Virus record (IMG/VR): IMGVR_UViG_3300028886_000036
Location: 128,001-192,000 of that record
Strand: one strand, 5' to 3'
Source: a virus
Lineage: Duplodnaviria; Caudoviricetes
DNA: 64,000 bases
Positions 21,783 to 48,063 of the stretch are shown here, piece by piece. Numbering within the stretch: the first letter of the stretch is position 1; each line of letters opens with the position of its first letter. A program made the position numbers and the translations under genes. The notes beneath the pieces were generated by a model. The model saw nothing but the letters and a program-made list of their open reading frames with translations. It was not told the origin of the DNA and ran no database searches.

Positions 21783-22105
21783 TACTTAACTTTTTTATAT
21801 TCCTTATACATTGCGTTAAGAAATGCTTCTGAGATAATTCCAAAAACTGCAAGCCAAATAGTAGTTGTGCTAATACTAAAGTTAAAAGGAACTCCAATGT
21901 ACTTCATCAAGTTTATACCAATAGGAAGCCAATTGCTAGACATAAACAAAATGTATATACACAAATTCTTAAATGTAGCAGCAATTCCACTAGCTACAAA
22001 AATATCTTGCCATAAATTATACATCATAAAAATCTTAATAGACAATGCAGTTATAGCGCATATAGATGCACCATAAAGATTAGCTTCTTTGTTAAAATTC
22101 GACAT
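21782..22105 (-). CDS. Membrane protein, paralog of 21387-21782
   Basis: Several hydrophobic segments. Confidence 0.55.
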   Translation of the reverse strand: MSNFNKEANLYGASICAITALSIKIFMMYNLWQDIFVASGIAATFKNLCIYILFMSSNWLPIGINLMKYIGVPFNFSISTTTIWLAVFGIISEAFLNAMYKEYKKVK

Positions 22106-25055
22106 CCAAACCAGCTCCGTTCATAGTAGTTTTAAATGTATCTTTAGTAATGGTATCAAGTGACAAGGGTTGATATGCTTCACTAATACCATCATAAAGA
22201 TATTCCCATAGTCTTACTCTTTCTTTGGGATTGTCAGATTTAATGCTCATGAACTCTTTTTGAGTATCAAATGCTTCATATGCTTGTAAAGCCCAGTTTT
22301 CCATCTCTCCGAGCCTATGCGAATTAGCTCCAGATGGAGGTTGATTATGTTTTCCATATGCGCCAAGGGATCTTCCAAATATCTTATGGTCAGGTTCATG
22401 GTGTAAGTGTAACATGTACATCCAACCAACAGAGCACTTGTACGTATTGTTATTATACACTACATCAGTTTCATAGTCAATCCCTACTAAGTTTTTAACC
22501 TGTTCAAGCTGATCAATATTACAACACCTAAATGGTTCTTGAATAATCTGTAATCCATGTTCTTTTATATCTTCTATAGTATCATCAAATTGAATTAATT
22601 CTTCAAGTTGTTTAGTGTATATCTTATCTTCAGTACAATCCACTATCTCAGCGAATTTAAGAATTGCTTCAATAAACTGCTCTTTAGTATCATTATAATG
22701 CTGTTTGATATACTGATCCATAAACCAAGTTAAATGCAGCTCATAAAGTTGTCCGACATTCATTCTAGTGATAACACCTAATGGATTAAGTACAACATCA
22801 AGATGTCTACCATCAGGCAGTGTTGGCATCTTTTCGTCTGGCATAATAATAGAAATAGTTCCTTTATTACCATGCCTATTACTGATTTTAGATCCAACAG
22901 TTAAAGGTCTTTCACTATAGATAGAATACTCAACAACGCCAGTGTCATCATTGATCTTTTTAGTTTTATCAAGATAGCAATACATTTCAGTATATTTTTG
23001 TTCATCTTCAAGATAAGAGAAAACGTTCTTCATCTTATCTTCAAGCTTTTGTCTTTCAGATACTTGCTTTTTTAACCAAGCACTCATTTGAGTATTTTCT
23101 GACACAGAGTTTTTAACATAGACTTTAGATGTAAACCTACCATCACTATATGCCAATACTTCTTCAACAGTTGGAGTTAATCCAGCTAATGATTCTGTAT
23201 CAACATTACCTAATTTAAAGATTACATCACCTTTATGAACAAAGTCTCCATTATTAGGAAATGGCATATACTCGCTAGAATCTGGTTTTATGTTAAACAA
23301 GCAGTCATTATTTAAATTAATCTTAGCAATATGATTGCATCTGTATGCCATCTTTTTAGCACAAGATTCAGATACAACAATTGCATCCTCGAAATTCCAT
23401 CCATCCAAGGACATAAACCCAACTAAAAGATTCTTACCTAACATTAATTCGTGTGTATAAGGATTAATGTTATTAGTGTGTGCCAATGTACTTCCTTTAC
23501 AGAACTTATCACCATCATTAAGACTAGTTAATAATGTTTTATCAAAATCTGTAAATGCTTTATTACTTAAGTCAATTACTTCTCCATCTAAGTCATTATA
23601 CTTAACTACCATTAAGCTGTCATCTTTATAGATAACCTGACCATCATCTTTAGCTAATTTTAATGAGGAAGTATACTCTGTATATAATGACTCATTTCCA
23701 GTCTTAACTAAAGGAATTTCAGGGTTAGCTATATTTATTGCCTGTCTTTGCTGATTACAACCCATTTCAACTCTAATACCATCGTTATGACAAAGTAATG
23801 GAATCATTTGAGAAGCAGTACTTAATATACTATTAGATTTACTTGGCTTAAGTATTCCATTTTCAAAACCGCAATCCGGTACCAGATGTTGACATATTCC
23901 AATAGCAGGGCCAGATGGAGAATCTATAGGATCAATAATTCCTCTATAAGATTCGTGCAAATTTCTTACTAATGCACTACACGATTCTTTAGCAATTCCA
24001 CCAGGACCATTGTATATAATTCTTGACATCATACACAATTCTCCTAAAGGATTAACCGAATCATCAAGGATTCTACGCTGATCCAAAGTTAAGACCCCAA
24101 TTATAGCATCGGTAAAAACATTATTACTCTTTTTCTTTTTATTGATTTTGTGTTGCTGAGCAAGTTTATAACAAATCCATTCTGAAAGTCTAGCTCGTCT
24201 TTGGCTAATATCATTAATCTCTCTAATTGGCATATTCTGATATTCTAATCTATGTTCATAAAGATACTTTATCATATCTTTCATAGAATAGGGATTATCA
24301 AAAATTCCATTTGGAACCATAATATAATCAATAAGATCTAATACATTAAGTATCTTATCAAGTTTAGAAGCTTTATTCCAAGACTTTAATACTCTTTTGA
24401 ATGCTTCACCATCTTCTAAGCTATATTTAGATTGGCTTTCTTCAAAAGACTTACATCTTTCAACATCATTAAATGGGTCAAGAAGATCTTTGAAATAATC
24501 CTTCTCAAAATTAATATAAATACATTTTTCAACTTGTAATGATAAACATCCATCCATTGGTTCAGAGCTATAATGAATATGTGGCTCATTTTGAATAAAC
24601 TCATCACCAAAACAGTATATCATTAAAAGAAGTAATGGCCACTTATTAGTACTAATCCTAAACTCAGTTATTTGTTTGTCGAATACAAGAGTACAATAAG
24701 TGTTGTGTATAAGTAGAGTGTTTTCATTCTTATTAAATATTGGTATATCCGATATCTGAAATATTGGAATATACCTATTACCATTGATAAGATACGATCC
24801 ATTCTCATATAAAGGGATCTTTACACTAACTTTTTTCTTAGATCCATCTTCAACTACACCAACTTGTTCTGCAGTAAGTATTCTACACAGAGTTTGAGCT
24901 GTTGGATCTACTACATCCACTTTCCCGTGTTTAAATAAAGAAAAGCCTGTGGAGGCTAATATATTTTTAGTAATAGTCTCCACATTATCTATCTGCTGTT
25001 GTCGTATTTCGTAGATGTTGTCTTTAGGTGTTTCAAATGGGATAATGCTATACAA
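22092..25055 (-). CDS. rpoB: RNA polymerase beta subunit, set A (probable non-virion RNAP)
   Basis: GSYLING, MGCNQQRQA, GWNFEDAIVVS, GSKISNRHGNKG, NPLGVITRMNVGQ, RLGEMENWAL. Confidence 0.95.
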   Translation of the reverse strand: MYSIIPFETPKDNIYEIRQQQIDNVETITKNILASTGFSLFKHGKVDVVDPTAQTLCRILTAEQVGVVEDGSKKKVSVKIPLYENGSYLINGNRYIPIFQISDIPIFNKNENTLLIHNTYCTLVFDKQITEFRISTNKWPLLLLMIYCFGDEFIQNEPHIHYSSEPMDGCLSLQVEKCIYINFEKDYFKDLLDPFNDVERCKSFEESQSKYSLEDGEAFKRVLKSWNKASKLDKILNVLDLIDYIMVPNGIFDNPYSMKDMIKYLYEHRLEYQNMPIREINDISQRRARLSEWICYKLAQQHKINKKKKSNNVFTDAIIGVLTLDQRRILDDSVNPLGELCMMSRIIYNGPGGIAKESCSALVRNLHESYRGIIDPIDSPSGPAIGICQHLVPDCGFENGILKPSKSNSILSTASQMIPLLCHNDGIRVEMGCNQQRQAINIANPEIPLVKTGNESLYTEYTSSLKLAKDDGQVIYKDDSLMVVKYNDLDGEVIDLSNKAFTDFDKTLLTSLNDGDKFCKGSTLAHTNNINPYTHELMLGKNLLVGFMSLDGWNFEDAIVVSESCAKKMAYRCNHIAKINLNNDCLFNIKPDSSEYMPFPNNGDFVHKGDVIFKLGNVDTESLAGLTPTVEEVLAYSDGRFTSKVYVKNSVSENTQMSAWLKKQVSERQKLEDKMKNVFSYLEDEQKYTEMYCYLDKTKKINDDTGVVEYSIYSERPLTVGSKISNRHGNKGTISIIMPDEKMPTLPDGRHLDVVLNPLGVITRMNVGQLYELHLTWFMDQYIKQHYNDTKEQFIEAILKFAEIVDCTEDKIYTKQLEELIQFDDTIEDIKEHGLQIIQEPFRCCNIDQLEQVKNLVGIDYETDVVYNNNTYKCSVGWMYMLHLHHEPDHKIFGRSLGAYGKHNQPPSGANSHRLGEMENWALQAYEAFDTQKEFMSIKSDNPKERVRLWEYLYDGISEAYQPLSLDTITKDTFKTTMNGAGLDVEF

Positions 25056-25058
25056 AGC

Positions 25059-25460
25059 TTATTCCCCCTTATCTTCAGGCTCCTTTAAATCTTTTTCTTC
25101 AATAGGGAAGTCTGCAATAATGCTTTCATTAAAGGTATCAATTTCCTTAATGTTTAAAAGTGAGATCTCAGTAAAAGTATCTTTATACTGTGAGTTATGA
25201 AGTATCATATTAATCTTTGCAGTAAGCCACATTGTAAAGCTCTTACCCAGTACTTTATCATAAATATCTCCGAGCTTATTTTTGAATTCTTCTTTCTCAA
25301 TATACTCGGTAATATTAAAATTAAGCATAGTACTTCCACAACCCTTTGGCTTAATCTTTGGGTTGAAGTTAACAATTACACCAAGTCTACGTTTAGTAGC
25401 ATCACTTAATGTAATAACAACATCACATACTAACAATGTATCCATTTTGTGTACTGGCAT
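25059..25460 (-). CDS. Hypothetical protein between beta' and beta genes
   Basis: RBS, tightly coupled in the RNAP operon. Confidence 0.6.
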   Translation of the reverse strand: MPVHKMDTLLVCDVVITLSDATKRRLGVIVNFNPKIKPKGCGSTMLNFNITEYIEKEEFKNKLGDIYDKVLGKSFTMWLTAKINMILHNSQYKDTFTEISLLNIKEIDTFNESIIADFPIEEKDLKEPEDKGE

Positions 25461-25476
25461 ATTTAATCATCCTTTC

Positions 25477-28296
25477 TTAAATAAATAACGCTGATCTTAA
25501 CAATGAAAAGTCTTTTACTTCTTCTAATTGAGGTAATCCCTCATTTAAATACTTTTTAAGATGATATGAAAACCTTTCAAAAGCTAATGCTTGTTCAGGC
25601 ATCATACTAATAATCCTATTTAGACCAACAAATTCATACCCTTCATCTTGATGAAGTCTATATGAATTATAATGATTACTAGCACTTCTGCAAAGCATAG
25701 CAATTATTAGCTCAAAGTTTACTAAGTCTATTGTAGCACAAGATCCATATATGTCAATTATTTGATAGATATACTCTTGTATACTTAAATCGGACTTGTT
25801 ATTCTTGTAGGGATTGTTAAGCAGAGTTGATAATGTTGTAACTGCATTAACAACATCTTTAGATTCAATATTAACTTTAGCAATCTTCTGCCCTGAAATA
25901 AACTTATAGCAATTAGGATCATCACCATATGGTTCTATTAATGGATCAAAGTTTTCTATATTGGTAAGCTCACGTTCAACCCCATCAATATCAAATATTA
26001 CTGTATCATTATTAGTCATAAACATACCGTCAACTTTAGCTCTCCAAACGCCATTTTTCATATCAAAAAATTCCTTAAACTCTGTTGTCGGATCATCTAC
26101 AGAACCACTAGTATGTTTAGTCCTAAGTGTTAACTGGGTTGTTCTTTCACCTAACGACTGGGCAGCTATAAGACCTATTAAATGAGATTTATGAACATTA
26201 AATAAATCACCATAGCATCTTTTACAGATTTTACTGTCAGTACATGTAATAGGTGAATATAAGTCTATTACCTTACCAATATATTCTTTATAGTTATCAT
26301 CTGTGATCTTTCCTTGTTTAGTATATCTACCGTGTAGCATTTTAGCTATCTTTTCATCTCTTACATAGAACTGAAAGGTCTTATCTTCATCACAATGATC
26401 CTTATCAGATAATTGCAATGGAGATAATAGATAAACTAACTTTCTAGTAAGATATCCAGACTTAGCTGTGTTTTCAGCAGTATCTATTAATCCTTTTCTA
26501 CCACCATAACAGGTAGTAAAGAATTCTTCTTTAGTTAACCCGTCCAATAAGGAATGAACAACCGGATCAGGAAGTATCTTACCAGTAACATCGCTAATAT
26601 ACCCCTTTTCCGAAGCGATCTGTCTATATTGATCCCAATTACCTCTAGCACCACTTCTAATCATAAGAGTAGCACTATTATCTTCTACGGTATCTGGGTC
26701 AAAATGCTTAGGATCTTTTATTATAAAATCTTTAACACTAAGTGTTCCGAAGCTATTACTAAACCCTTCTCTGCACAACACATCCATCATATAAATCCAA
26801 TCATAACTATTGATTACTTTTTCAGCATAATCTATAAAGGCATGAATCTTCTTTTTTACAAGTTGTGTATTGAATACTTTAAACAACTCTAAATTATTCC
26901 AAGAAGATTCTGGTATAGCTTTTTTAAATAACTCAATACGTCTTTCAGTGGTGGGTATTCCAAAATACTCAGTTTTAGCTGAATAGTCTCCTGAAGTAAT
27001 TTTAGCCAAACCCATAACTTCGTCCTGTTTAAATGTATAAGTTATTTCTCCATTAGATGGTAATCTTTTATTAGATGTAATCCACATCTTTTCAGCAGCA
27101 TCTTTTATTGAGATACTACTAGGCACATACATGGCCATCTGATCCCCATCAAAGTCTGCGTTGTACCCATCTGTAACTAAAGGATGTATAGTTATAACAT
27201 CATCCCAAATAACGTCAAATACTTTGGAGGATTGGAATGATGGCCTGTGTAAAGTAGGTTGTCTATTAAGAAACACATATGTTCCAACTACTATTTTTTT
27301 AAGTATTGACATTATTGATTCCTTTAAATATGGCTTATCATAATCCCTCAATACTTGTAATGGACTTATGTGATTTTCTTCAGCAACTAATCTTAATACT
27401 TGTGGTTTATATACTTCTTTAGCAATTCCATAAGGTATCTTACAATAACCTAGTGGTAGATTTGTTCCATCTACTGTAATAACTGCTCTGCCACTATAAT
27501 CTATTCTTTTCCCTAACACACTAGATCTAAGAAATCCAGTCTTCTTTTCAAATTTGCCAAGTAGAGTTTTAAAGAGCTCATCTACCTTATATTGTATGGA
27601 AGTGTGTGTTGACTGGAAAATAAATGGTGCGTACTCAATATCAGCTAATTGCCTAAGTATATTAGTATACTTTTCATTTAACTCATCTGAAAAGAATTGT
27701 TTCTCATCATTAGCAGATTGCATAAGTGGTCTAGTTTCTGGTGGTATAACTGGAACATAATGAAGAAAAAGATACTTCTCATATTTACTTACAAATTCTT
27801 TAAAGTTATCGGAGTGTTCCATTAGATATGGATATACTATATCCTTAAATGCTTCTGGTCCACTCTCATATCCGTCTTCAGTTCTGGGTCCAACTATTAC
27901 TTTACCAGAATCATCAGTTTTCACACCGATTCTACCAAGTATTAGTTTACTAATTTTTAACTTACTAATAGCTTTAGATATGCTAATCTTATCTAACATA
28001 TCTAATAGTATTGGATTAACTATTACAATGTTTTTAGGTATTTCTATAGCTGCAAATGTAGTTCTTCTCTTATCACATGTATCTACAGTAACTCCGCAAT
28101 ATTCACAGGTTAATCCTATATGTTCTTTACCATGAAGTCTTCCACAGCTACATGTATAATCTTTAACTGGTCCAAAAATAACTTCACTAAATAACCCATC
28201 TTTATGGAAGGATCTAGCTCTATACATTATTTGTGGGGATTTAACTAGTGGCAATTTACTACACCACTCATTTATATCAATAAGTTCTAGTTTCAA
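25477..28296 (-). CDS. rpoC: RNA polymerase beta' subunit, set A, with Zn-binding domain
   Basis: DGLFSEVIFGP, CSCG..CEYCG, GKRIDYSGRAVI, NRQPTLHR, NADFDGDQM, AAQSLGERTTQLTLRTKH. Confidence 0.95.
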   Translation of the reverse strand: MKLELIDINEWCSKLPLVKSPQIMYRARSFHKDGLFSEVIFGPVKDYTCSCGRLHGKEHIGLTCEYCGVTVDTCDKRRTTFAAIEIPKNIVIVNPILLDMLDKISISKAISKLKISKLILGRIGVKTDDSGKVIVGPRTEDGYESGPEAFKDIVYPYLMEHSDNFKEFVSKYEKYLFLHYVPVIPPETRPLMQSANDEKQFFSDELNEKYTNILRQLADIEYAPFIFQSTHTSIQYKVDELFKTLLGKFEKKTGFLRSSVLGKRIDYSGRAVITVDGTNLPLGYCKIPYGIAKEVYKPQVLRLVAEENHISPLQVLRDYDKPYLKESIMSILKKIVVGTYVFLNRQPTLHRPSFQSSKVFDVIWDDVITIHPLVTDGYNADFDGDQMAMYVPSSISIKDAAEKMWITSNKRLPSNGEITYTFKQDEVMGLAKITSGDYSAKTEYFGIPTTERRIELFKKAIPESSWNNLELFKVFNTQLVKKKIHAFIDYAEKVINSYDWIYMMDVLCREGFSNSFGTLSVKDFIIKDPKHFDPDTVEDNSATLMIRSGARGNWDQYRQIASEKGYISDVTGKILPDPVVHSLLDGLTKEEFFTTCYGGRKGLIDTAENTAKSGYLTRKLVYLLSPLQLSDKDHCDEDKTFQFYVRDEKIAKMLHGRYTKQGKITDDNYKEYIGKVIDLYSPITCTDSKICKRCYGDLFNVHKSHLIGLIAAQSLGERTTQLTLRTKHTSGSVDDPTTEFKEFFDMKNGVWRAKVDGMFMTNNDTVIFDIDGVERELTNIENFDPLIEPYGDDPNCYKFISGQKIAKVNIESKDVVNAVTTLSTLLNNPYKNNKSDLSIQEYIYQIIDIYGSCATIDLVNFELIIAMLCRSASNHYNSYRLHQDEGYEFVGLNRIISMMPEQALAFERFSYHLKKYLNEGLPQLEEVKDFSLLRSALFI

Positions 28297-28328
28297 AATA
28301 AGTACTCCCTTCTAATAGGATACTTATT

Positions 28329-28356
28329 ATTATATACTAAAAATTAAAAAAGTCAA
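28329..28356 (-). promoter_or_regulatory. sigmaA-type promoter for RNAP set A operon
   Basis: TTGACT-16nt-TATAAT. Confidence 0.65.
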
Positions 28357-28384
28357 GTGGATGGATGTGTATCCACCCACTTGA
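28353..28384 (-). terminator. Intrinsic terminator after the HNH gene, overlapping the -35 box
   Basis: tcaagtggatgga-tgtgta-tccacccacttga + T-tract. Confidence 0.7.
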
Positions 28385-28390
28385 ATTATA

Positions 28391-29536
28391 TTATTTATTA
28401 TTTTTTCGTCTATTACAATCTTTACAAAGCATTTGAAGATTGTCTTCGCTTGTATGGCCGCCAAGACTCCACGGAATAATGTGGTCACCTTGCATATCTT
28501 CAAATTCAAATTTCTTACCACAAATCGGACATATATGATTTTGTTTCTCATAAACACGTCTTTTCTGATTTTCTGTAAAAGATCTAATAGACAAATATTT
28601 CTCATAGTTAATACTTCTATCAGAAAGAAGATATGGAATAATGCCAGAATGTTTGGTTACATCATCATCTTGCATAAGTTCAGTCACTTCTTTAGAAAGA
28701 TTGTTTACATCATAATAATTATCTTTATATTTATTATAAAGTAAACCCCAATCTTGGCAATCTGTAACACCTTTTATTTTTATCGGGAAAAGATCTTTAG
28801 CCCAAGTGATTACAGCCTTAAAGTATCTCCACAATTCACTCGCATCTAAATCATGTTGATGAAGAGCCATATACTCTTCAATTGAAGACACATTAGTCTT
28901 ATCAACTATCCAAGCAAGTACCTTTTCAAAATATTCTTGCCTAATTGAATTACCTTTAACATATCCTTCAGAAAGTTTATATGCTGCACAACCCTTTTTA
29001 GAAAAATACAGCTTTGCATCAGATACCCCAGGGCCACAATATGCAGCATTCCTTAATTCTTGACTGGTTAAAACAGCATTAGCTATATTAATAGTTTTAA
29101 ACCAATCTAGTTTTTGAGCTTCAGTACCTTCACAGATTTCGATAAGTAATTCATAATTCAAAATAGAATTTTTCTCTTCATCAGATAAATTATGAAAATA
29201 TCTTGCGTTTCCGTCTATAACAACTGCAAACGTATCCGTCACAAATTGACAAATCGAAATAGTTCTTTGCTGTCCATCAATCAGCTCATACGTATCATTG
29301 CCTTTATCATCAACATTTTTAGACCAGTACATTGCATTAAGTGGCCTGTGTTTAAAAACTGATACAATAACTTCATTTCTTTGTTTTTCGTTATATACAA
29401 ACTCTCTTTGAAAATTAGGTCTTATAGTAAGTTTACCATTATATCCAAAAACACCATCATCCCCAAGATCAACATATCCATTAACTACTTCAGATACTTT
29501 AATAGATTTTGCCGTATAAGTCATATCTGCAGCCAT
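28391..29536 (-). CDS. DUF262 (ParB-like) + HNH endonuclease (GmrSD-like restriction subunit)
   Basis: RPNFQREFVY, IDGQQR, F..IN; CPICG...GDHIIPWSLGG..NLQMLCKDCN. Confidence 0.9.
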   Translation of the reverse strand: MAADMTYTAKSIKVSEVVNGYVDLGDDGVFGYNGKLTIRPNFQREFVYNEKQRNEVIVSVFKHRPLNAMYWSKNVDDKGNDTYELIDGQQRTISICQFVTDTFAVVIDGNARYFHNLSDEEKNSILNYELLIEICEGTEAQKLDWFKTINIANAVLTSQELRNAAYCGPGVSDAKLYFSKKGCAAYKLSEGYVKGNSIRQEYFEKVLAWIVDKTNVSSIEEYMALHQHDLDASELWRYFKAVITWAKDLFPIKIKGVTDCQDWGLLYNKYKDNYYDVNNLSKEVTELMQDDDVTKHSGIIPYLLSDRSINYEKYLSIRSFTENQKRRVYEKQNHICPICGKKFEFEDMQGDHIIPWSLGGHTSEDNLQMLCKDCNRRKNNK

Positions 29537-29548
29537 TATAATTTTCCT

Positions 29549-30523
29549 CTACTTTCTTTTTATAAAAATTCTAGTATACAATCTCTTACCATTAATAACC
29601 CCGCATCCGCCTCTATCTTCATCACTTTGCTTATACTTTAATTGATTGTCTAATATATGTTTAGGGCAACATGCTTTAGTATTACCACTAGCTTGCCACA
29701 CTATTTCAAATTGATCTGGACAATATTTATCTATAAACGATATTGGAACTCCCATTATGCCAATATAGTTATCAGGAATCTTGTCAGTTTTATCTACATT
29801 AATAGCGTCAAAATTATCATATTTAGGATATTCTTTTGGGTCATATGTTGCATATAACTTCAATTCCTGATGTCGTTTATTATGGTCAAGATTTGTGAAC
29901 CAACAAATATTACCAAGTGATTGATATCTAATACCATCTTTCTCAATCTGATTATCTCGCTTAGGAGCATTATTAGGTATTTTAAAAGTCATGCTTTTAT
30001 GGGCAGACGCACCAAGCCATATTTTATCATATTTAAATAGTGGAAATATCTCTTTACACACTATAGCATTTTGATTTCCTATAATTAAAAATTTTTTATC
30101 GTATTCTATTAATTGCGCTAAGTATTCTCTAAACAAACTAAATGGAGGATTAGTTACAACTATATCTGCTTCTTTTAAAAGATCGATGCATTCTTGATTC
30201 CTAAAATCACCGTTAGATATCAATGGGGTCGTTGTACAAAATGAAACATCATTATCGTTACCACCACAATATTCTACTTTATATGTAGGTTTTTCTTTAT
30301 CATAATGAGTAGCTATAAGTTTCTTTAATCCTAGTGCCCCAAATAATAAATGAAAATATTCCCAAAAAGCTGAACTTTCATCATCACAATTACACAATAC
30401 AATTTTATCTTTAAAATGAGATTTATAATAAACTAATTCGTTTTCAACATCTATTCTCTGTGTATAAAATTCATCGTTTTTTTCTTTTTTAGCTTTATGC
30501 AGTGTCTTAATACTATTAGCCAT
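29549..30523 (-). CDS. Adenine-specific DNA methyltransferase, EcoRI-methylase family
   Basis: NDEFYT, VLCNCDD, GDFRN, VVTNPPFSLFREY, MGVPISF. Confidence 0.9.
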   Translation of the reverse strand: MANSIKTLHKAKKEKNDEFYTQRIDVENELVYYKSHFKDKIVLCNCDDESSAFWEYFHLLFGALGLKKLIATHYDKEKPTYKVEYCGGNDNDVSFCTTTPLISNGDFRNQECIDLLKEADIVVTNPPFSLFREYLAQLIEYDKKFLIIGNQNAIVCKEIFPLFKYDKIWLGASAHKSMTFKIPNNAPKRDNQIEKDGIRYQSLGNICWFTNLDHNKRHQELKLYATYDPKEYPKYDNFDAINVDKTDKIPDNYIGIMGVPISFIDKYCPDQFEIVWQASGNTKACCPKHILDNQLKYKQSDEDRGGCGVINGKRLYTRIFIKRK

Positions 30524-39370: not shown

Positions 39371-39799
39371 TCACTCCAATGTGCAATCAAAATAATGATA
39401 ATCGAAACTAACATTTTGATTATACACCATTTCAAATACTTTTTCTAGTCTTCTACAAATATCATCTTCAATACAAAAACCATATGAACAAGTTTTTATA
39501 ATATTATCATTAAAAGTTCGTAAATCTAATATAATTGCAATCTCTCTAGAAACGTCTACTACATTATCTCTATACGATATAAAAATTTTCCAATATCTAG
39601 ACATACTATATCGTCTACTATGTACTAGCATAAAACTCAAACTTATAATTTCATCCTTCATAATACGATCCATAACAATAGCATTAAATCTTTGACAATA
39701 CAGCATTAACTTATTACGCTTAGTAAGTTTACTACTGTAATCCTTAGCCGATCTATACAAATAATCCCTCCTAAAGTAGAACCTTAAATCTTGGAACAT
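39371..39799 (-). CDS. Hypothetical protein, possibly leaderless
   Basis: ATG immediately downstream of the promoter motif, no SD. Confidence 0.5.
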   Translation of the reverse strand: MFQDLRFYFRRDYLYRSAKDYSSKLTKRNKLMLYCQRFNAIVMDRIMKDEIISLSFMLVHSRRYSMSRYWKIFISYRDNVVDVSREIAIILDLRTFNDNIIKTCSYGFCIEDDICRRLEKVFEMVYNQNVSFDYHYFDCTLE

Positions 39800-39802
39800 T
39801 AA

Positions 39803-39819
39803 TAGTATATATTTACAAA
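39803..39819 (-). promoter_or_regulatory. Putative phage-RNAP promoter motif
   Basis: TTTGTAAATATATACTA. Confidence 0.65.
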
Positions 39820-39839
39820 TTTTAAGGTAACAAAAATAA

Positions 39840-39869
39840 AAACAAAGAGAGGTTTCCCTCTCTTTGTTT
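39840..39869 (-). terminator. Intrinsic terminator
   Basis: aaacaaagagagg-tttc-cctctctttgttt. Confidence 0.8.
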
Positions 39870-39874
39870 ATACG

Positions 39875-40033: not shown

Positions 40034-40046
40034 TTTTTTTTCTCCT

Positions 40047-40127
40047 TTACAGAACTGCTACGACGATAGCCATAGCTTCTTTAATAGTAAGCATCTTAAT
40101 AAATGAAAATGTAAACACGCTAAACAT
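40047..40127 (-). CDS. 26-aa hydrophobic peptide (not in ORF track)
   Basis: AAAGGAGGT RBS; MFSVFTFSFIKMLTIKEAMAIVVAVL*. Confidence 0.5.
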   Translation of the reverse strand: MFSVFTFSFIKMLTIKEAMAIVVAVL

Positions 40128-40183
40128 CTATGCCACCTCCTTTCTATAGGAGATAACATAAATTTTAGCTGGTCGAACGCAGC

Positions 40184-40444
40184 TCATTGCTGCAACAAGT
40201 TACTTATTAATATTTCGTTAGTTATCCTATCAGTTATTTCATACAATATTTTGCATGTTTCTGGTGCTGTTCCTATAAATAATAGATTAACTCCATACCT
40301 TGCAAAATCAAACACTATATTATTTTTAAAATAATGTAGATTTTGCTCTTTATATCGTTTCACCTCCTTCTTCATCTCATCACTATTCCACGCTAACCTA
40401 ACAAGACTTGATGCAAAAACTTTGAGCATAGGCTTACTTAGCAT
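40184..40444 (-). CDS. Small hypothetical protein
   Basis: AAAGGAGG RBS. Confidence 0.6.
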   Translation of the reverse strand: MLSKPMLKVFASSLVRLAWNSDEMKKEVKRYKEQNLHYFKNNIVFDFARYGVNLLFIGTAPETCKILYEITDRITNEILISNLLQQ

Positions 40445-40507
40445 ATGCCCTCCTCCTTTCTCCCTATTATAGGGAAATTACACCCATTTGAAATACAGGT
40501 GCAATAG

Positions 40508-40524
40508 AAGTATATATATTCAAA
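40508..40524 (-). promoter_or_regulatory. Putative phage-RNAP promoter motif
   Basis: TTTGAATATATATACTT. Confidence 0.55.
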
Positions 40525-40535
40525 ACACAAAATAA

Positions 40536-40568
40536 AAGTAGACACCGCTATTACAGCAGTGTCTACTT
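40536..40568 (-). terminator. Intrinsic terminator after beta set B
   Basis: aagtagacac...gtgtctactt + T-tract. Confidence 0.75.
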
Positions 40569-40575
40569 ATTTTAT

Positions 40576-43500
40576 TTAACCATTAATATCAATGCCCATA
40601 CCTGTTATAACAGCATTAAAGTATTCTCCAGCTCCGGATAACTTAATTTCAGTAGTAATGTCAGCACTTCCATTTCTTATTATATCAGATATAACCTGTC
40701 GTTTTACATCGGAATTTTCAGCAGATACAGCAAACATTTGCTTAATAATTTCTTTACCTTCATTACCATATGATAATAAGCACCAAGTATCCATTTCACC
40801 CATTCTTTGACCTCCAGCTCTAGCTTTTCCTCTAGTGGGGCTCATAGAAGTCTTAACATATCTACCAACATTTCTAGCATGAGATTTAAGTTCAGCAATC
40901 TGTTCAAGTCTCTGGAAATACATAATACCACAAGCCACAGGATATCTTGTCTTAGCATTTGGACCTAATTCTGGTATAGTCAAGTATTCACAGAATTTAG
41001 CACCAAACTTTTTACTAGCTGCAATTATTTGATCTATGCTATCCCCTTGAAATGGAGCTACTAATAATTTTAATTTACTCTGTATAGCATCTTGAACATA
41101 CTTATCAAATTCACTAGAATTCATGGCCCTCAAGTTCTGAGCTATCTTAGAACTATAGGTTTTATTGTCAGTACCGTCCATAGATTTATATAAGTCTATA
41201 ATAAAGTTTTCAATAGCAGTTCTTCCAGCTTTTTTATTGTACATATTAGTCAAAGTTTCAGTAGCTTTAAGCATTATTCTAGATGCAGCTAATTCATGTA
41301 ACTGACCAACATTCATTCTTCCAATTACACAAAGATTTGGATATATAACTTCTATAGCTTTTCCATCTTCTGTGTGAGGCATAAGATTATCTGGAAGTAT
41401 CTTAGTAATAACACCTTTACCACCATGCCTGTTAGATAACTTATCTCCAAGATTAGCTGGCATATAAGATACAAGTTCTATAATGACTTTATTACCTTTA
41501 AATGCTTCTCCATGATCGGTATATTTACCAGCATTGTTAAGTATAGCTCTTTTATCAAAGAACTTCTTTCCACCAGCCTTAGTTATAGCATCATTAGATT
41601 GGGCATAGTACTGTTCAGTATGATTAATAAGATCCATAACTTGTGATACATCACCGTTAGGGAAGAACTCACATCCAACTACTTTACAGTCAGTTGGAGC
41701 TATTAATTCATAATCATCACTTAAAGCCATATCTCCTACAATAGATTTCTTAATTCTAAGAACCGTATCTCCAGCTTTAAAAGACTGTCCAATTCTAGGG
41801 AATACTTCAATCTGATCATTTGGTAATAATGTAACTTCTGTTTTATCATTATGTAACGAAGTAATTCTCTTAGCAAATGATTCTGAAATAATAAAACCGT
41901 CCTCATAGTTATAACCCATATATGACATATAACAAGTTAAAGCATTGATCCCCTGAGTAAGAGTTGGCTTAATAAACTGATTAGATGCAAGTATTTGGAA
42001 CTTATTAACTTTATCTCCAGCTTTAACTGTAGGTGTATATTCTAATGCTGCATTCTTTCCAGAGCCTGAAATAAGACATTTAGGTCTAATATCTATGATT
42101 TCATTTCTATTATCATCACCTTTTACTATAATTACCTTATCATCAACATAAGTTACTGTGCCGTTTGCAGACGATTTTTTAGCAAAAGTAGATGAGCACA
42201 TAGCCGGTATAACAGCCTCAGCGCCGGTACCAATAATAGGAGCTTCAGAATTCTCAATAGGAACCGTCTGTCTAGCCTGATTGGCAGCCATGATAGCTCT
42301 AGCTTGGTCATCTGCATCTATATACGGAGTGCAGGATAACGCTGGTCCCATTATTTGAGTATTTTTAGGATTAATCTCCATTGGCATAAAACCGTGTTGT
42401 TCTGAATCATACAAATGACCTAAAGATAAGAATATTCTAGTTCCAGGGTCTCCTTCAGAAGTATCTGACGGATCTAAATTACCAAAATGAGATACTCTAA
42501 CCGCTCTATCTCTAGGCATTATAGCATCAGAATTTGGCAATCCACCGGGACCAGCTATTCTAACTGCTGCATAGTTACTAACTTCTTCTATTGGATTCTG
42601 TTCCTGTAATTGCTGAAGAGCACCCTGATCTCTGAAGAATTTAGTAACAAATCCAGAGTCTACACTAATTTCTTTATTAGGATCATAAAGATGCTTTCTT
42701 TTAAAGTTACTAATCCCCTGGTCAATGCCCTTTTCAACGGCAGTTGTAATAATATCAGTTGTTCTCAAATATACATTTTCTATACTTAATTTATCAGATA
42801 CAGCGCCTGAAATAGCTTTATCCGCACAGAATGGAATAATCTCCTTAAGCACAAATGGTAATTGATTGGATTTAAGAACATTTTCAGTTTGGACATCTAC
42901 AATATATTTAATACACTGTCTTAAAACATACTCAGTTTTAGCAGCTCCTGTATATGCCTTTAAACATTCAAAGGCTTCTTGCGTGGAAGTTATATTCTTA
43001 AATTTATATTTTCTAAACATCAATCTTAAACCAGTCTCAATCACTCTATGATGAACATTAGTCTGATCAAAATCACAAACCAACCATTGTTCATTATCTA
43101 ACTGATAACAAGTTTTACCTCTAATCTTTTTATCAGAAAGCATATGATTAACATTATAGTATCTAAGCACGCCTTCTATACCAAGTATAAGAGAGAATAA
43201 CAAAGCTAATGGGATTTTAACTCCACCAACAAAGCATCTAACGTCTTCCTGTTTGTTGAATATTCCATAAAAGAAGGAAATAGATGAATAGTTAGTTCTA
43301 ATTTGTGAATGATGCTTCTTAACTATAAATATAGGAAGAGTAGCCATAATTGTTGGGAAGAACCATTTGAGTCCACCAGAAACAACAAATCTATCTTCAT
43401 GAATAGCTGGAACTCTAAACTTTAAAGTAACCGTTTTTCTAGAAGTTGTAATGCACTTAATATTGATTATATCAAAATCTGATTTATACATTTCTGTATC

Positions 43501-45105
43501 AGCACCTAATGATTGTGTAAACCAAACTTTCTGTACTTTATATCCAATCTCAGATAATCTACCAGATACTGATCTAAAGATGTCATTAACAATTTTATCT
43601 TGATATTTATGTCTTCTAGCAATAGCCATACTAATATTGTTAGTAATTAAAGAATTAACTAATTTATTATCATTAACCTCATCAATATTCTCATCCTTAT
43701 CATATCCAAGTTCTCTAACAACATTCTCTTGTTTTTCAATATCAGGAGTTATCTCTGGTATGTCTCCTGGTTTTATTGTTTTCATAACATTCTTTAATAC
43801 TTTAGTATTTGCAACAGCTGCCTGGGCAATATCTATTTGCTTCTGTTTATCGTTACTATTAACAGCATCTACAGCTGTAACTGCAGCTTGTGGATTTGCT
43901 CTAGTTAATGCATTTAGTCTATTTGCTAAAACAGAACTATTAATACTAAAGTTATTCATAATAGATCTTGCACTTTTGCTAATCTCTCTTACAGCAGCAT
44001 CAATATCCGCCTGCCCTATAGCTTTAAGCTTTGATTCATTATCGTTAGCTTTTTTAATAGGATCCCTTTTAGCTACAGGAAGTATTATCTTTTTAACTAT
44101 AGGATTACTATCATTTTGTTTATCTCCTCTATCAATAATAACATCTTGCTTAATAACTGGCTTCGGCGGTTCTTCTTTTTTAACCATTTGGAATCTATTA
44201 TTGAAGGTTGGAGTAACGCCTCTAGTTTGAACATTATTAGTAGGAATATTCATTCTCATAGCAGTTCCAGCTGGGTTAGGCTGCATAGGAACCGATTGAG
44301 GGCGATTATTACCAAAGCCGAAGAAGTTCTTTATTTTACCAAACATTCCTGGCTGAGGAGGATCTACTTCTGATTTAGGAGGCATCTTTTGTAAAGACAT
44401 TCTAAGATCCGCCATGGATATAGTCTTTTTCTTTTCCTCTTCCTCTTCCTCATCAACAATTCTTGTATTGATAGCATCTCTAATAAACTTAAAGCACATT
44501 TGGAATGTATTCTTCTTATCCAATGCTTTATCATAAATTAATCTAAATTGACCTTTCGATACAGAAAACAAAACTATCTTACTATATGGAACTGACATAT
44601 ACTGCATCTTTCTTAATTTATACAATATGTTAAAAAGATACATATCCTTCATATTAATCTTTTGTCCTAATATACTTGAATCTACGACATACAGTAATAT
44701 TTGTTCATTTCCCAAGTTATTCATACTATTAACTGTATTAGCCATAAAGTTAGATGCAATTTCTACATATCTTAAAGATTCTAACTTATTCTTCATATAC
44801 ATCATATATGGTGTAATATCATATACAAAAGTTTTATTATTAGAGAATTGTGATAAAACTGGATATACATTAAGTGATCCATAGTTCTTTTTAACTTCTT
44901 CAGTTCTAGTTATAAGTAATTTATTAAAAACTCTCAACGATTTAGGCTGATATGCATATAACGGTGGCATATTAAGAGGAAGCCTATCAAAATAAGTTGC
45001 GCCTATTGGGGCACCTTCAACTAAAAGATGTATTATATACCCTTTTCTAGGAATCATAAGATTAGGTGCCATAGTAGAATGAAGTTTTAATGATTTAATT
45101 TGCAT
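40576..45105 (-). CDS. rpoB: RNA polymerase beta subunit, set B, with long N-terminal extension (probable virion RNAP)
   Basis: MAANQARQ, GYNYEDGFIIS, GDKLSNRHGGKGVI, RMNVGQ, GGQRMGEMDTWCL. Confidence 0.93.
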   Translation of the reverse strand: MQIKSLKLHSTMAPNLMIPRKGYIIHLLVEGAPIGATYFDRLPLNMPPLYAYQPKSLRVFNKLLITRTEEVKKNYGSLNVYPVLSQFSNNKTFVYDITPYMMYMKNKLESLRYVEIASNFMANTVNSMNNLGNEQILLYVVDSSILGQKINMKDMYLFNILYKLRKMQYMSVPYSKIVLFSVSKGQFRLIYDKALDKKNTFQMCFKFIRDAINTRIVDEEEEEEKKKTISMADLRMSLQKMPPKSEVDPPQPGMFGKIKNFFGFGNNRPQSVPMQPNPAGTAMRMNIPTNNVQTRGVTPTFNNRFQMVKKEEPPKPVIKQDVIIDRGDKQNDSNPIVKKIILPVAKRDPIKKANDNESKLKAIGQADIDAAVREISKSARSIMNNFSINSSVLANRLNALTRANPQAAVTAVDAVNSNDKQKQIDIAQAAVANTKVLKNVMKTIKPGDIPEITPDIEKQENVVRELGYDKDENIDEVNDNKLVNSLITNNISMAIARRHKYQDKIVNDIFRSVSGRLSEIGYKVQKVWFTQSLGADTEMYKSDFDIINIKCITTSRKTVTLKFRVPAIHEDRFVVSGGLKWFFPTIMATLPIFIVKKHHSQIRTNYSSISFFYGIFNKQEDVRCFVGGVKIPLALLFSLILGIEGVLRYYNVNHMLSDKKIRGKTCYQLDNEQWLVCDFDQTNVHHRVIETGLRLMFRKYKFKNITSTQEAFECLKAYTGAAKTEYVLRQCIKYIVDVQTENVLKSNQLPFVLKEIIPFCADKAISGAVSDKLSIENVYLRTTDIITTAVEKGIDQGISNFKRKHLYDPNKEISVDSGFVTKFFRDQGALQQLQEQNPIEEVSNYAAVRIAGPGGLPNSDAIMPRDRAVRVSHFGNLDPSDTSEGDPGTRIFLSLGHLYDSEQHGFMPMEINPKNTQIMGPALSCTPYIDADDQARAIMAANQARQTVPIENSEAPIIGTGAEAVIPAMCSSTFAKKSSANGTVTYVDDKVIIVKGDDNRNEIIDIRPKCLISGSGKNAALEYTPTVKAGDKVNKFQILASNQFIKPTLTQGINALTCYMSYMGYNYEDGFIISESFAKRITSLHNDKTEVTLLPNDQIEVFPRIGQSFKAGDTVLRIKKSIVGDMALSDDYELIAPTDCKVVGCEFFPNGDVSQVMDLINHTEQYYAQSNDAITKAGGKKFFDKRAILNNAGKYTDHGEAFKGNKVIIELVSYMPANLGDKLSNRHGGKGVITKILPDNLMPHTEDGKAIEVIYPNLCVIGRMNVGQLHELAASRIMLKATETLTNMYNKKAGRTAIENFIIDLYKSMDGTDNKTYSSKIAQNLRAMNSSEFDKYVQDAIQSKLKLLVAPFQGDSIDQIIAASKKFGAKFCEYLTIPELGPNAKTRYPVACGIMYFQRLEQIAELKSHARNVGRYVKTSMSPTRGKARAGGQRMGEMDTWCLLSYGNEGKEIIKQMFAVSAENSDVKRQVISDIIRNGSADITTEIKLSGAGEYFNAVITGMGIDING

Positions 45106-45123
45106 ACTCTAATACCTCCAGTA

Positions 45124-48063
45124 TTACGCATTAACAATATCGTCCAGATCTGATTTAATCCTAAACGAATTATCATCAGTCAATACCGCTGTTGTAAATG
45201 CTTTACTGACATTTTCAAAAGCAGCTCCTCTTCTCCAATTCTCATAAACAGCAACCTGTTTAAGACCAACTCTAAGAGGTTCTCCTTTATGATCGCATCT
45301 ATATGGTATAGCAGGAGTTTTTGCATTTCTAAACAACTGGGACACAAATACCTCAAACGCCCACATTGGTACTCCTGGAAGAGTATTATAATACATCAGT
45401 TCAACCAGTTTATCTGGGTTTGTAATATTAGTTTGTTGGGCAAGTTTTTGTACCTGCATAACAGCCCCTGTTGTAGAGCCAGCAGAGTTCTTCATAGAGC
45501 CAAATATAATATCTTTTGCATAGGGAATCCTAAACGCATTGCCAATATCCTCCAAATCATCTGGATCATTAACTAATAAAGTAAAATCATATGGTAAATC
45601 AAGAACTATTTTAAGTTTTCCAGATTCAATAGTAAAGCTTTTAAATGTCATTTCACCACTAGCATTACTTAAAATTTCTTCTTTTGGTACAGTAACTATT
45701 ATAGGTACCGTTGCAATAACATTATCGTGTTTATCCTGAATACAAACATTTTTAATATCAGGGTTAGATGATAAGAAATTAGCAGCACCTTTAGATGAAG
45801 TTGAGTGGAATGTCTGCATGGTTAATTGAGCTCCTCTTTCACCAACAGCTTGTGCAGCAAGAATTCCAACATTATACGATCCAAGCTTATCATAAAGATC
45901 ATAAGGTAAACAATCCAAACCAAGTTTAAATGGCTCCCAATACACTGGCGAAATAATATCTACTTTCTGGCCAATGTAATCTTCTCCGTTTTCAATAATT
46001 TGACCATTCCATAGTTTTCTGTGATATAACCCATTAGCCATATATTTATCTCTAACATTAACCCTTAAAGGTTTAAATGCATGATTGCCTTTCATAGCAG
46101 GATCCAATACTATAGATGCTGCTAAATAAATAAACTGTCTAGTCATATAACCAGAATTAGCAGTCATCTGAGATCTATCAACTAGCCCAGATCTACCAGA
46201 AACTGATGTAACATAATAATCACTAGGATTAAGGCCTTGCCCGGTTGCTGTTTTAACTGGAGTAGGAATAATTTCTCCATCCTGATTGGCGACATATCCT
46301 TTAGCTACAAATGATGCTTTAATATTGCCAACTTTCTTTTCAGCTCCAGATGCTAAAAAGTCAGCTATTAAGTTATCTGTATCAGCAAATTCTTTCATAA
46401 CATCTTGTGTTAGTTTTTCCAAGTTTTCAGGTATTTCTGTACCCTTAGAGAAAATTTCATCCTTTCTTTTAAGGAATTTATCATCAAGCCTATATATGCT
46501 GATATCCAATGTTTTACCAATTATAGTAGGAATTTTACACGCAGATCTAGCTAATAATCCAGCTCTATGAAATATTTCATCAGAAGGTACTTTGCCAATT
46601 AACTTCCTCAATATTTTAATAGCACCTTTACCATTAACTTGTTCTGTACACGGCATTCCAACTATAATCTCAAATATTGCTCTACCAGCAGTTGTTACAG
46701 ATCCATTATATTTAACAGGAAATGCTGCATCATTATGCTCAAAAATAACTGCTTCAGCTTCTTCAACTGTATTTACAGTAGGAGGATTCACTACTTTTGG
46801 ACCCTTATAATCAGCTGTAAGATAATATATACCTAACGGAACATCTTTTTTAAATTCAAATGATAAATCGTCATCACCTTTAGAAGATGAGCAATCTTTC
46901 CCAATTAATACTTTTTCTTTAGCCAACTTTTGAGCTGTACTAGTTATAGGTAAAAATATAGCCATCTGATCTCCATCAAAATCCGCATTAAATGGTCCAC
47001 ATATAATTGGATGTATGTGGAATGTTTCGTCGTTTACTAATTTCATATACATTCCTCTGACAGAATGTCTATGTAAGCAAGGATCTCGTTTAGCTAAAAC
47101 TACTTTACCTTCCATAGCTTTCTTCAATGCATTAATGACTACTTCCTTAACATTTGCAGGAACCTCATTAGACTTTTCTTTAACTTGATCTATAACTCTA
47201 CCTATATTAAGCTGAGTTGCTTTAACTCCGGCTTTTTCTAAATCATCTTTAAAATCAAATAATAAATTATGTGTAACAAAAGGTTTAAGCAAAGTTAATG
47301 CTATATCTTCTGGAACTCCTATAGTATTAGGCTCAATATTAATATCTCCAGTAATAACCGCTCTTGCCGAGAAATCCATTATCTTACCTAAAAGATTGCT
47401 TCTCTGAATACCTTGCTTACCTTTTATAAGATTAGTTAACTCCTGATATACCTGATATACTTCTTTTTGTATTCTAAGAGTAACTGATCTTAAGTTATTC
47501 CCAGTAGAAAATCTAACTACATTAGCATCATTAATTATCTGTGAGTAGTAACTATTGATAGGTGTCATTTCTATTTTATTTCTAACAATATCAACTGGCC
47601 TATACTGTGGGGGGACAACTATAAGTTTATCAATAAATGCGAATGCCTTATATTTCACAATATATCTTAATAGTTTTATTCCAGCATCAGTTACCATATT
47701 CTTTTCAATAAGTTGCTTACATATCTCTTCAGTATGCTCTATAAAAAAGGGGATACCGTAGTATCCCAATGAATTCTTTTCTATCGACTCTGTATCTGGA
47801 TTTAATGAGATTTCTCCAGTAAAAAACTTTAATAAAGCAGATGCTCTTCTATCTGCTATTTCATATAACAATGGATGTAATACTTGTGTGTTCAAGGAAA
47901 TAAACCCAAATACACTTCTCCATCTTGCACTATTTGGTAATCCAAAAATATAATTACTAAAAAGTCCGTTATCATCAAACTTTTCAGCTTTCATAATATT
48001 AGCTGTAGTAACTTCTTTTACATCATTATCAGCTATAAATTTATTAATATCAAGTAATAGCAA
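45124..48063 (-). CDS. rpoC: RNA polymerase beta' subunit, set B, lacking Zn sites
   Basis: NGLFSNYIFG, GKIMDFSARAVI, KRDPCLHR, FNADFDGDQM, AAQAVGERGAQLTMQTFH. Confidence 0.95.
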   Translation of the reverse strand: MLLLDINKFIADNDVKEVTTANIMKAEKFDDNGLFSNYIFGLPNSARWRSVFGFISLNTQVLHPLLYEIADRRASALLKFFTGEISLNPDTESIEKNSLGYYGIPFFIEHTEEICKQLIEKNMVTDAGIKLLRYIVKYKAFAFIDKLIVVPPQYRPVDIVRNKIEMTPINSYYSQIINDANVVRFSTGNNLRSVTLRIQKEVYQVYQELTNLIKGKQGIQRSNLLGKIMDFSARAVITGDINIEPNTIGVPEDIALTLLKPFVTHNLLFDFKDDLEKAGVKATQLNIGRVIDQVKEKSNEVPANVKEVVINALKKAMEGKVVLAKRDPCLHRHSVRGMYMKLVNDETFHIHPIICGPFNADFDGDQMAIFLPITSTAQKLAKEKVLIGKDCSSSKGDDDLSFEFKKDVPLGIYYLTADYKGPKVVNPPTVNTVEEAEAVIFEHNDAAFPVKYNGSVTTAGRAIFEIIVGMPCTEQVNGKGAIKILRKLIGKVPSDEIFHRAGLLARSACKIPTIIGKTLDISIYRLDDKFLKRKDEIFSKGTEIPENLEKLTQDVMKEFADTDNLIADFLASGAEKKVGNIKASFVAKGYVANQDGEIIPTPVKTATGQGLNPSDYYVTSVSGRSGLVDRSQMTANSGYMTRQFIYLAASIVLDPAMKGNHAFKPLRVNVRDKYMANGLYHRKLWNGQIIENGEDYIGQKVDIISPVYWEPFKLGLDCLPYDLYDKLGSYNVGILAAQAVGERGAQLTMQTFHSTSSKGAANFLSSNPDIKNVCIQDKHDNVIATVPIIVTVPKEEILSNASGEMTFKSFTIESGKLKIVLDLPYDFTLLVNDPDDLEDIGNAFRIPYAKDIIFGSMKNSAGSTTGAVMQVQKLAQQTNITNPDKLVELMYYNTLPGVPMWAFEVFVSQLFRNAKTPAIPYRCDHKGEPLRVGLKQVAVYENWRRGAAFENVSKAFTTAVLTDDNSFRIKSDLDDIVNA

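Follow-up and report, generated by a model that had tools for sequence, protein, structure and literature searches.

The stretch of DNA analysed here, called the window below, comprises bases 128,001-192,000 (64,000 nucleotides) of the IMG/VR record IMGVR_UViG_3300028886_000036, an uncultured tailed phage whose record has 275,466 bp, a G+C content of 32% and a CheckV completeness of 100%. Within this window exactly two pairs of genes encoding a beta' and a beta subunit of a multisubunit RNA polymerase (RNAP) were identified, with all four open reading frames (ORFs) on the minus strand and the gene for beta' preceding that for beta in both pairs. These are referred to as set 1 (beta'1 and beta1, type B) and set 2 (beta'2 and beta2, type A). 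The region between the two sets contains genes for an endonuclease of the GmrSD/HNH kind, a methyltransferase-like protein, topoisomerase II (two subunits) and RNA ligase; no tRNA genes were found within the window. The features and their coordinates are listed in Table 1.

Table 1. Features of the two RNA polymerase loci and their surroundings (positions are those of the window)
Feature	Position	Strand	Description
beta1	22092-25055	(-)	987 aa; compact, complete; Pfam Rpb2_3/6/7
ORF between beta'1 and beta1	25059-25460	(-)	133 aa; no family match
beta'1	25477-28296	(-)	939 aa; type B; Pfam Rpb1_1/2/4/5; Zn ribbon CxC...CxxC; NADFDGD
sigma70-type promoter of beta'1	28329-28356	(-)	TTGACT-16-TATAAT, 33 nt upstream of beta'1
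Terminator-like hairpin	28353-28384	(-)	14-bp stem and T-run; closes the HNH gene and overlaps the -35 of the beta'1 promoter
GmrSD_N + HNH endonuclease	28391-29536	(-)	PF03235, PF01844 and PHROG HNH families; directly upstream of the beta'1 unit
M1 site TTTGTAAATATATACTATTAATGTTC	39794-39827	(-)	AT-rich and promoter-like; heads the topoisomerase II/RNA ligase operon between the RNAP sets
Intrinsic terminator after beta2	40536-40568	(-)	15-bp stem with 6 G-C pairs, then T-run
beta2	40576-45105	(-)	1509 aa; complete core; Pfam Rpb2_3/6/7 at residues 832-1469
beta2 N-terminal extension	43426-45105	(-)	About 550 aa, lineage-specific
beta'2	45124-48063	(-)	979 aa; type A; Pfam Rpb1_2, Rpb1_5; NADFDGD; without N-terminal Zn ribbon
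Five ORFs upstream of beta'2	48081-52176	(-)	327-aa DHH phosphoesterase (phrog_4771), then 146, 213, 455 and 196 aa without family match
sigma70-type promoter of set 2 operon	52214-52241	(-)	TTGACT-16-TATAAT; heads the DHH, 146-, 213-, 455- and 196-aa ORFs, beta'2 and beta2
M1 sites in window	starts 52801, 40532, 39827, 20506, 11106, 6074	(-)

The first-pass annotation, made from the letters of the window, had described two complete and unsplit polymerases, and this description stands. The frames of all four genes are uninterrupted, and their products matched the Pfam RNAP domains with E-values of 1e-20 to 1e-42 and with scores above the cut-offs. The beta'1 and beta'2 families align end to end over 893 columns (hhalign E 1e-162), the main difference being a Zn-ribbon segment that is deleted in beta'2. 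On bacterial beta' the beta'1-family profile aligns from the Zn ribbon through the C-terminal conserved region, positions 170-927 of 948 corresponding to residues 509-1453 of 1524 in Thermus beta'. Because the family profiles align full-length with bacterial beta' and with each other, we regard both beta' subunits as complete, their small size resulting from the absence of lineage-specific inserts. For both beta subunits, alignment to bacterial beta extends from the fork/rifampicin region through the C-terminus; the N-terminal third of beta1 has no such alignment. In addition, beta1 matches the C-part of the beta subunit of the AR9 non-virion RNA polymerase (nvRNAP; 7s00_C, E 2.5e-37). The motifs read earlier, as well as the order of the genes, were found again in both sets: besides NADFDGD in each beta', the SNRHGxKG lysine motif is present as GSKISNRHGNKG in beta1 and GDKLSNRHGGKG in beta2, and the R(L/M)GEM motif as RLGEME and RMGEMD, respectively.

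Searches of the called ORFs with phmmer and of the whole genome with six-frame tblastn identified two copies each of beta' and beta and no fragments, the two sets being about 25% identical to each other. An alpha subunit (PF01000, PF01193) was not found in genome-wide profile searches in which control profiles were matched, which extends to the whole genome the absence previously noted for the window, and neither were sigma regions 2 or 4. A short ORF placed between beta'1 and beta1 had been missed in the first-pass annotation. In relative L008 a 130-aa homologue (26% identical, E 2e-10) occupies the equivalent place, where relative L011 has no such ORF. This ORF was considered as a missing piece of beta' or beta and rejected, both subunits being complete without it.

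In set 2 only 18 nt separate beta'2 from beta2, and the latter carries a long N-terminal extension for which only 14 homologues were obtained among 1.8 billion representatives; those of about 1470-1550 aa represent long-beta proteins in full, and the others are shorter or partial. The AlphaFold model of the extension contains a confident alpha/beta domain (residues 1-222), a disordered segment (226-361) and helices (362-440). The extension gave no significant Pfam family (one sub-threshold match, E 0.09), no convincing fold with Foldseek against the PDB (E>=0.09) and no result in an Atlas feature search, and the weak similarity of residues 19-214 to P-loop kinases and signal recognition particle (SRP)-type GTPases (VIA-align, Z 5-7) is below a meaningful level. 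The five ORFs upstream of beta'2 are tightly packed, and ORFs of similar size occur in the same order in relative L010; they are apparently co-transcribed with beta'2.

Close homologues of the beta'1 family are 46-91% identical and those of the beta'2 family 37-85%, and beyond these are a distant phage family (26-36%) and then bacterial beta' (about 29%). A Logan contig (62% / 56% identical) has the same layout, with beta'2, a long beta2, topoisomerase genes, beta'1, a small ORF and beta1. A single-sequence search with beta'2 returned no close IMG/VR relatives. The type A profile led to 11 large IMG/VR records, of which six contain two beta' genes. In four of the six the two beta' measure about 1000 and about 900 aa, and in the other two the type A frame is shorter, at 771 or 784 aa. 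Together with the Logan contig, these records support the existence of a lineage of phages with two RNAPs, as had been proposed from the window. The IMG/VR records behind L048, L052, L060 and L100, which are complete and of 178-210 kb, each contain only one ORF with a beta' domain, 1257-2391 aa long, which may encode fused or greatly extended RNAP subunits.

Unsplit RNAPs in tailed phages have been reported before. Weinheimer & Aylward 2020 (PMC7481178) described as mReC a group of 97 metagenomic tailed-phage contigs in which beta and beta' are unsplit, and left phiKZ-type genomes out of the set because their RNAP genes are fragmented. In Supplementary Data 2 of that work several contigs are entered twice, as '_a' and '_b', and the pairs belong to two classes, one with beta of about 1360-1390 and beta' of about 1000-1017 aa and the other with beta of about 1000-1050 and beta' of about 900-976 aa (PMC7481178). 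Examples of these contigs include SMTZ23_10000005 (3300002053, 277 kb; pairs 1365/1002 and 999/902), 3300017987_Ga0180431_10000006 (308 kb) and 3300017989_Ga0180432_10000070 (149 kb) (PMC7481178). One of the four IMG/VR records mentioned above (149,482 bp, beta' of 1005 and 900 aa, matched by the type A profile) has the metagenome id and the length of the last of these. The text of PMC7481178 uses the RNAP as a phylogenetic marker and does not discuss two enzymes per genome, how these relate to nvRNAP and to the virion RNA polymerase (vRNAP), or promoters.

The present phage has full-length beta and beta' with strong matches to cellular profiles, an RNAP that stands apart from bacteria and groups with other phage sequences, and the hallmark genes of tailed phages, as in the mReC definition. 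It belongs to this published group, in whose supplement the dual unsplit layout is present but undiscussed. The first-pass annotation had named, as one possible refutation, the nesting of both pairs within a described unsplit clade with two sets; given the '_a'/'_b' pairs of the same size classes, this is largely the case, and novelty of the lineage is not supported. The dual-set mReC contigs are likewise from uncultured tailed phages with unsplit subunits and both types of pair on one contig. They differ in that they come from sediment phages with 26-36% identity and in the length of beta2, which is longer here (1509 aa).

Among isolates in INPHARED, the best matches are 25-28% identical to beta'1 (RHph_TM30, Carin-5 and YerA41). 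Rhizobium phage RHph_TM30 (Kleczkowskaviridae) and Cobetia phage Carin-5 are cultured and have an unsplit beta', and Carin-5 and the also cultured Yersinia phage YerA41 have beta' before beta; all three differ from the present phage in having one beta' locus and in branching outside its clade. Carin-5 has an annotated sigma factor adjoining beta', with no counterpart in the present phage. The 196-aa ORF upstream of beta'2, which has the same length and position as that sigma factor, was considered as a candidate and rejected, as no similarity (E 0.75) and no Pfam or PHROG match were found.

The relation of both sets to the enzymes of phiKZ and AR9 was assessed with beta' trees rooted on bacteria, calculated under LG+G4 (53 rows) and under the mixture model LG+C20 (26 rows), in which the split phiKZ pieces were concatenated and the cellular references were 11 bacterial beta' only. 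All phage beta' separate from bacteria with 99% support in the Shimodaira-Hasegawa-like approximate likelihood-ratio test (SH-aLRT). RHph_TM30 and YerA41+Carin-5 branch first among the phages, and a single clade unites types A and B with both phiKZ enzymes, its SH-aLRT being 100% under LG+G4 and 99% under LG+C20. It had been suggested as a possible refutation that one pair could be a recent capture of host rpoBC, and a related possibility is that one pair is a decaying duplicate. The strongest PDB matches of beta'1 are indeed bacterial beta'. However, neither pair falls within the sampled bacterial clade, the identity to bacterial beta' is only about 29%, the order beta' to beta is the reverse of that in bacterial rpoBC, the genome has no alpha or sigma match, and each type has a deep conserved family with homologues 37-91% identical. 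Decay is in turn contradicted by the intact catalytic motifs and the uninterrupted frames. Recent capture or decay is therefore very improbable, and neither pair was acquired from a host.

Inside this clade, set 1 seems to correspond to nvRNAP and set 2 to vRNAP, a correspondence that we propose with moderate confidence, together with a duplication within phages. For this comparison the PHROG profiles were first matched to individual phiKZ subunits, phrog_2986 representing the N-part of vRNAP beta' and phrog_2987 and phrog_3015 representing nvRNAP. The beta'1 protein scored 115 bits on each nvRNAP profile (N-part and C-part), compared with 64 and 50 bits for those of vRNAP, whereas beta'2 scored 105 bits on the vRNAP N-part profile versus 87 bits on the nvRNAP one. 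Moreover phiKZ gp180 (vRNAP) matches only beta'2 and gp74 (nvRNAP) only beta'1. Long N-terminal beta extensions are found only in the vRNAP-type gp178 (1451 aa) and in beta2, and these extensions do not align with each other. A tree constrained to join nvRNAP and type B had a log-likelihood 12 higher than the quick free tree.

Several observations weigh against such a one-to-one correspondence. Joining the two phiKZ enzymes costs only 1.2 log-likelihood units, so that a duplication specific to phiKZ is not rejected (approximately unbiased test, p-AU 0.43), and under the mixture model the long phiKZ branches lack a resolved position inside the clade. The beta subunits are also less informative, as their profile scores separate nvRNAP from vRNAP poorly and, in phmmer, phiKZ gp178 (vRNAP) matches beta1 and not beta2.

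The present phage thus shares with phiKZ and AR9 a pair of paralogous phage RNAPs with neither alpha nor sigma, membership of the same clade in the beta' trees, the profile affinities of sets 1 and 2, and promoter-like motifs of the AR9 kind (described below). In those phages, though, four or five polypeptides make up beta and beta', where here each is one protein. Another difference is the presence of a T4-type major capsid gene (genome positions 269142-270404; PF07068, E 1.4e-20) and of host-type promoters before both RNAP operons. In the jumbo-phage grouping of PMC7824862, T4 gp23-type capsids are assigned to phages without their own RNAP, and by combining such a capsid with its own RNAPs the present phage crosses these groups.

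The features of phiKZ/AR9 phages (Chimalliviridae) proposed earlier as worth searching for in the rest of the genome, together with others, were not detected genome-wide. No match was found for a PhuZ-type tubulin (PF00091, with control profiles matched), for a gp68-like fifth subunit (phrog_3209 and phmmer), for the phiKZ-type major capsid protein (phrog_3231 and phmmer) or for phiKZ head proteins and their protease family. For chimallin, phrog_4795 gave no match at E<=0.05 in the six-frame genome and phiKZ gp54 no phmmer match, although a very divergent shell protein could escape such searches. By chimallin, gp68, PhuZ, capsid and split-subunit tests, the phage is no recognisable member of the Chimalliviridae.

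Among the relatives of the two sets some genes are split. In L106 (6001-10023), after a type A beta' of 779 aa, come first a 333-aa ORF, unrelated and without a known family, and then a 230-aa ORF that aligns to the C-terminal residues 819-962 of beta'2; in the tree this split beta' nests among relatives of 1005-1009 aa, and it looks like a gene split by insertion. In L011 (12863-15882), whose beta'1 is 49% identical, the type B beta consists of 418 + 586 aa in different frames. The gene may truly be split, or the assembly may contain a frameshift there; counted in beta1, the interruption corresponds to residue ~405 and is no more than about 10 residues away from the point where the C-part of the AR9 nvRNAP beta starts. 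Inserts seem to be present in some homologues of the type A beta' (P0136-P0140), whose length is 1254-1378 aa, and one of them, P0136 (1378 aa), contains an endonuclease domain (LAGLIDADG_3) that points to an intein in its beta' gene. Because the split forms are nested among unsplit relatives, the data fit a splitting that is recurrent and derived, and in part tied to mobile insertions. The first-pass annotation had called the unsplit architecture possibly ancestral, and the nested variants of L106 and L011 give this some support.

The sequences upstream of the RNAP genes were inspected for transcription signals. A strict sigma70 consensus (TTGAC[AT], 16-18 nt, TA[TC]AAT) occurs at 26 sites genome-wide versus about 3 in shuffled sequences, and 20 of these fall in intergenic DNA, mostly a short distance upstream of a gene in the matching orientation. 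A loose sigma70 scan remained at chance (86 vs 85 and 66 vs 58), so that only the strict consensus is enriched. Each RNAP set has one of these sites (Table 1), and further ones are found before the gene for the DNA polymerase PolB and, where the coding strand changes, before a group of small ORFs. In relative L010 a TTGACA-17-TATAGT promoter with TGn is placed at the position equivalent to that of the set 2 promoter. It stands (L010:1560-1630) between the arms of a 13-bp inverted repeat that is followed by a T-run and that may be a regulatory hairpin. No terminator-like site was seen in the intergenic gaps between the set 2 promoter and beta'2, and L010 has a hairpin and T-run after beta2 equivalent to the terminator of the present phage.

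Two other motifs were found to be enriched in intergenic DNA. The first, M1 (consensus TTTGTA(T/A)ATATAT(T/A)AT..AGTGTTC), is matched by a position weight matrix at 30 sites of the genome; every one is on the minus strand, and 25 lie between genes. Those in the window include sites at the head of the topoisomerase II/RNA ligase operon and of an ATPase gene. Several M1 sites (genome 224.15, 230.22 and 237.20 kb) stand back-to-back with sigma70-type promoters of the plus strand. The second, M2 (consensus TCTGAACAAATATAGAGAA), is located before genes of the plus-strand structural block, including tail-fibre genes; this block is occupied by the tail sheath and fibre genes. One M2 site is at genome 100261. 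M1 resembles the early consensus of the AR9 vRNAP, AAATATATATTAT-N6-G, and M2 contains the AACA core of the late consensus of the AR9 nvRNAP.

Since each set stands behind a consensus sigma70-type promoter, the likeliest programme is a cascade started by the host. The host RNAP would transcribe the early genes from sigma70-type promoters, including those for both phage RNAPs and PolB, each RNAP set probably forming its own transcription unit. Set 2 would then probably read the AT-rich M1 class, found before minus-strand genes of which several are for DNA metabolism, and set 1 the AACA-containing M2 class before tail and structural genes, an assignment of enzymes to promoter classes that we infer from their affinities and the motifs' likeness to AR9 signals. 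Neither enzyme would need to be packaged in the virion. Taken as a whole, the reading of two intact cores of the mReC lineage, old paralogues within phages and counterparts of nvRNAP and vRNAP, that act in a host-started cascade of three polymerases has in our opinion about an even chance of being correct. Within it, the completeness and identity of the genes, their paralogy and conservation, and the occurrence of three motif classes are established by the sequence data. A scheme of this kind is known from phage N4, in which, as recounted in the AR9 paper, two phage RNAPs and one host RNAP serve three temporal classes of genes. The analogy is functional only, as the N4 enzymes are single-subunit and T7-like, with no homology to those described here, and the host enzyme acts late and not early.

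Some of the promoter data are less favourable to this cascade. Relative L008 has no evident sigma70-type promoter before beta'1, and the M1 count alone is not above that of shuffled sequences (24 vs 12), its signal residing in the intergenic position and strand bias. Moreover, if both enzymes are made early, some other factor must delay transcription from M2, the late class.

The programme of phiKZ and AR9 offers a different explanation, in which set 2 would be packaged, perhaps by means of the beta2 extension, injected with the DNA and used to read M1 early, while set 1 as a non-virion enzyme would read M2 late and the sigma70-type promoters would be auxiliary. The case for a virion-packaged set 2 rests on its affinity to vRNAP profiles, including the match of phiKZ gp180 to beta'2, and on the promoter context, M1 being closely like the AR9 vRNAP early consensus. 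Long beta extensions restricted to beta2 and gp178 are also in line with it, as is the split in L106, where the last ~230 aa of the type A beta' are separate, recalling the small C-terminal beta' piece of jumbo-phage vRNAPs (2020 review). An SNF2-type helicase gene is moreover placed behind M2 in the late structural block, and the phiKZ helicase gp203 is annotated as structural. On the other hand, a packaged enzyme is expected to be expressed late, but the promoter of the set 2 operon is of the sigma70 type, and no M2 site is present there. The 26 strong host-type promoters, one of them before PolB, point to early use of the host RNAP, and the T4-type capsid is found without any detected phiKZ head protein, protease-family match, chimallin or gp68. 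We consider packaging of set 2 possible but less probable than the host-started cascade.

The absence of alpha, sigma and gp68-like genes from the searched genome could also mean that the phage beta and beta' form hybrid holoenzymes with host alpha, omega and sigma, most plausibly with set 1 reading the sigma70-type promoters. The Zn ribbon retained in beta'1, its alignment along the whole bacterial beta' and the abundance of consensus sigma70 promoters would agree with this. Yet the phage proteins are only about 29% identical to bacterial subunits, no alignment to bacterial beta is obtained for the N-terminal third of beta1, and in a 2026 review the phiKZ-type RNAPs are described as having no homologues of alpha, sigma or omega and no stable interaction with bacterial subunits. 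Such hybrids are improbable, if somewhat less so than a recent host capture.

The host-started cascade also has consequences for the effect of rifampicin. The segments of the rifampicin pocket that had been quoted from the window, DDSVNPLGELCMMSR and QEQNPIEEVSNYAAV, are read directly in the beta sequences, and alignment to bacterial beta gives the residues equivalent to those of E. coli: Asp516 is Asp in beta1 and Glu in beta2, His526 is Met and Asn, Arg529 is Arg and Ala, and Ser531 is Ile and Arg, respectively. The first-pass annotation had stated that the bacterial H/R contacts are lacking in both subunits. This is correct for His526, whose equivalent is gone in both, and does not apply in full to beta1, which retains the equivalents of Asp516 and Arg529. 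Positions 516, 526 and 531 are the classical hot spots of rifampicin resistance, and both phage enzymes are accordingly predicted to be insensitive to the drug. The infection as a whole may nevertheless be rifampicin-sensitive if the host RNAP is required early, as the many sigma70-type promoters could indicate.

Other genes of the phage deserve mention. Relatives L008 and L011 have no GmrSD_N/HNH gene at the place upstream of the beta'1 unit where the present phage carries one, so the gene is likely to be a mobile insertion. The SNF2-type helicase (620 aa; phrog_62, annotated as DNA helicase; genome 70448-72310), which lies inside the plus-strand late structural block behind an M2 motif, recalls phiKZ gp203, a DEAD/DEAH box helicase annotated in that phage as a structural protein. 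With regard to the host, strong Shine-Dalgarno motifs and TGn-extended -10 boxes give only a hint of a low-GC Gram-positive-like bacterium.

In a 2026 review of jumbo phages the multisubunit RNAPs of phages are described as split, and the origin of vRNAP and nvRNAP, by ancestral duplication or by two acquisitions, is called unknown. The presence of unsplit paralogues in one clade with both phiKZ enzymes makes this question testable. Because these paralogues share that clade and split variants are nested among unsplit ones, the sequences favour one duplication within phages followed by repeated splitting of the genes. In a more speculative version, which we put forward tentatively and regard as rather less likely than its alternatives taken together, a single duplication would have preceded fragmentation, packaging and the phage nucleus, and the present phage would retain unsplit direct orthologues of vRNAP and nvRNAP, neither of them packaged, together with a T4-type capsid, the lack of a phage nucleus and a cascade in which the host RNAP comes first, the M1 reader second and the M2 reader third.

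Compared with the mReC precedent, what this phage adds is the link to vRNAP and nvRNAP, the nested split variants, the T4-type capsid gene in a genome in which no PhuZ, chimallin, gp68 or capsid protein of the phiKZ kind was detected, and a predicted promoter map of three classes. Cores encoded by two genes should be much easier to express and to characterise structurally than the phiKZ enzymes of four or five pieces. They also offer a minimal RNAP without alpha or sigma for dissecting promoter recognition, for which the predicted promoter classes would provide concrete templates.

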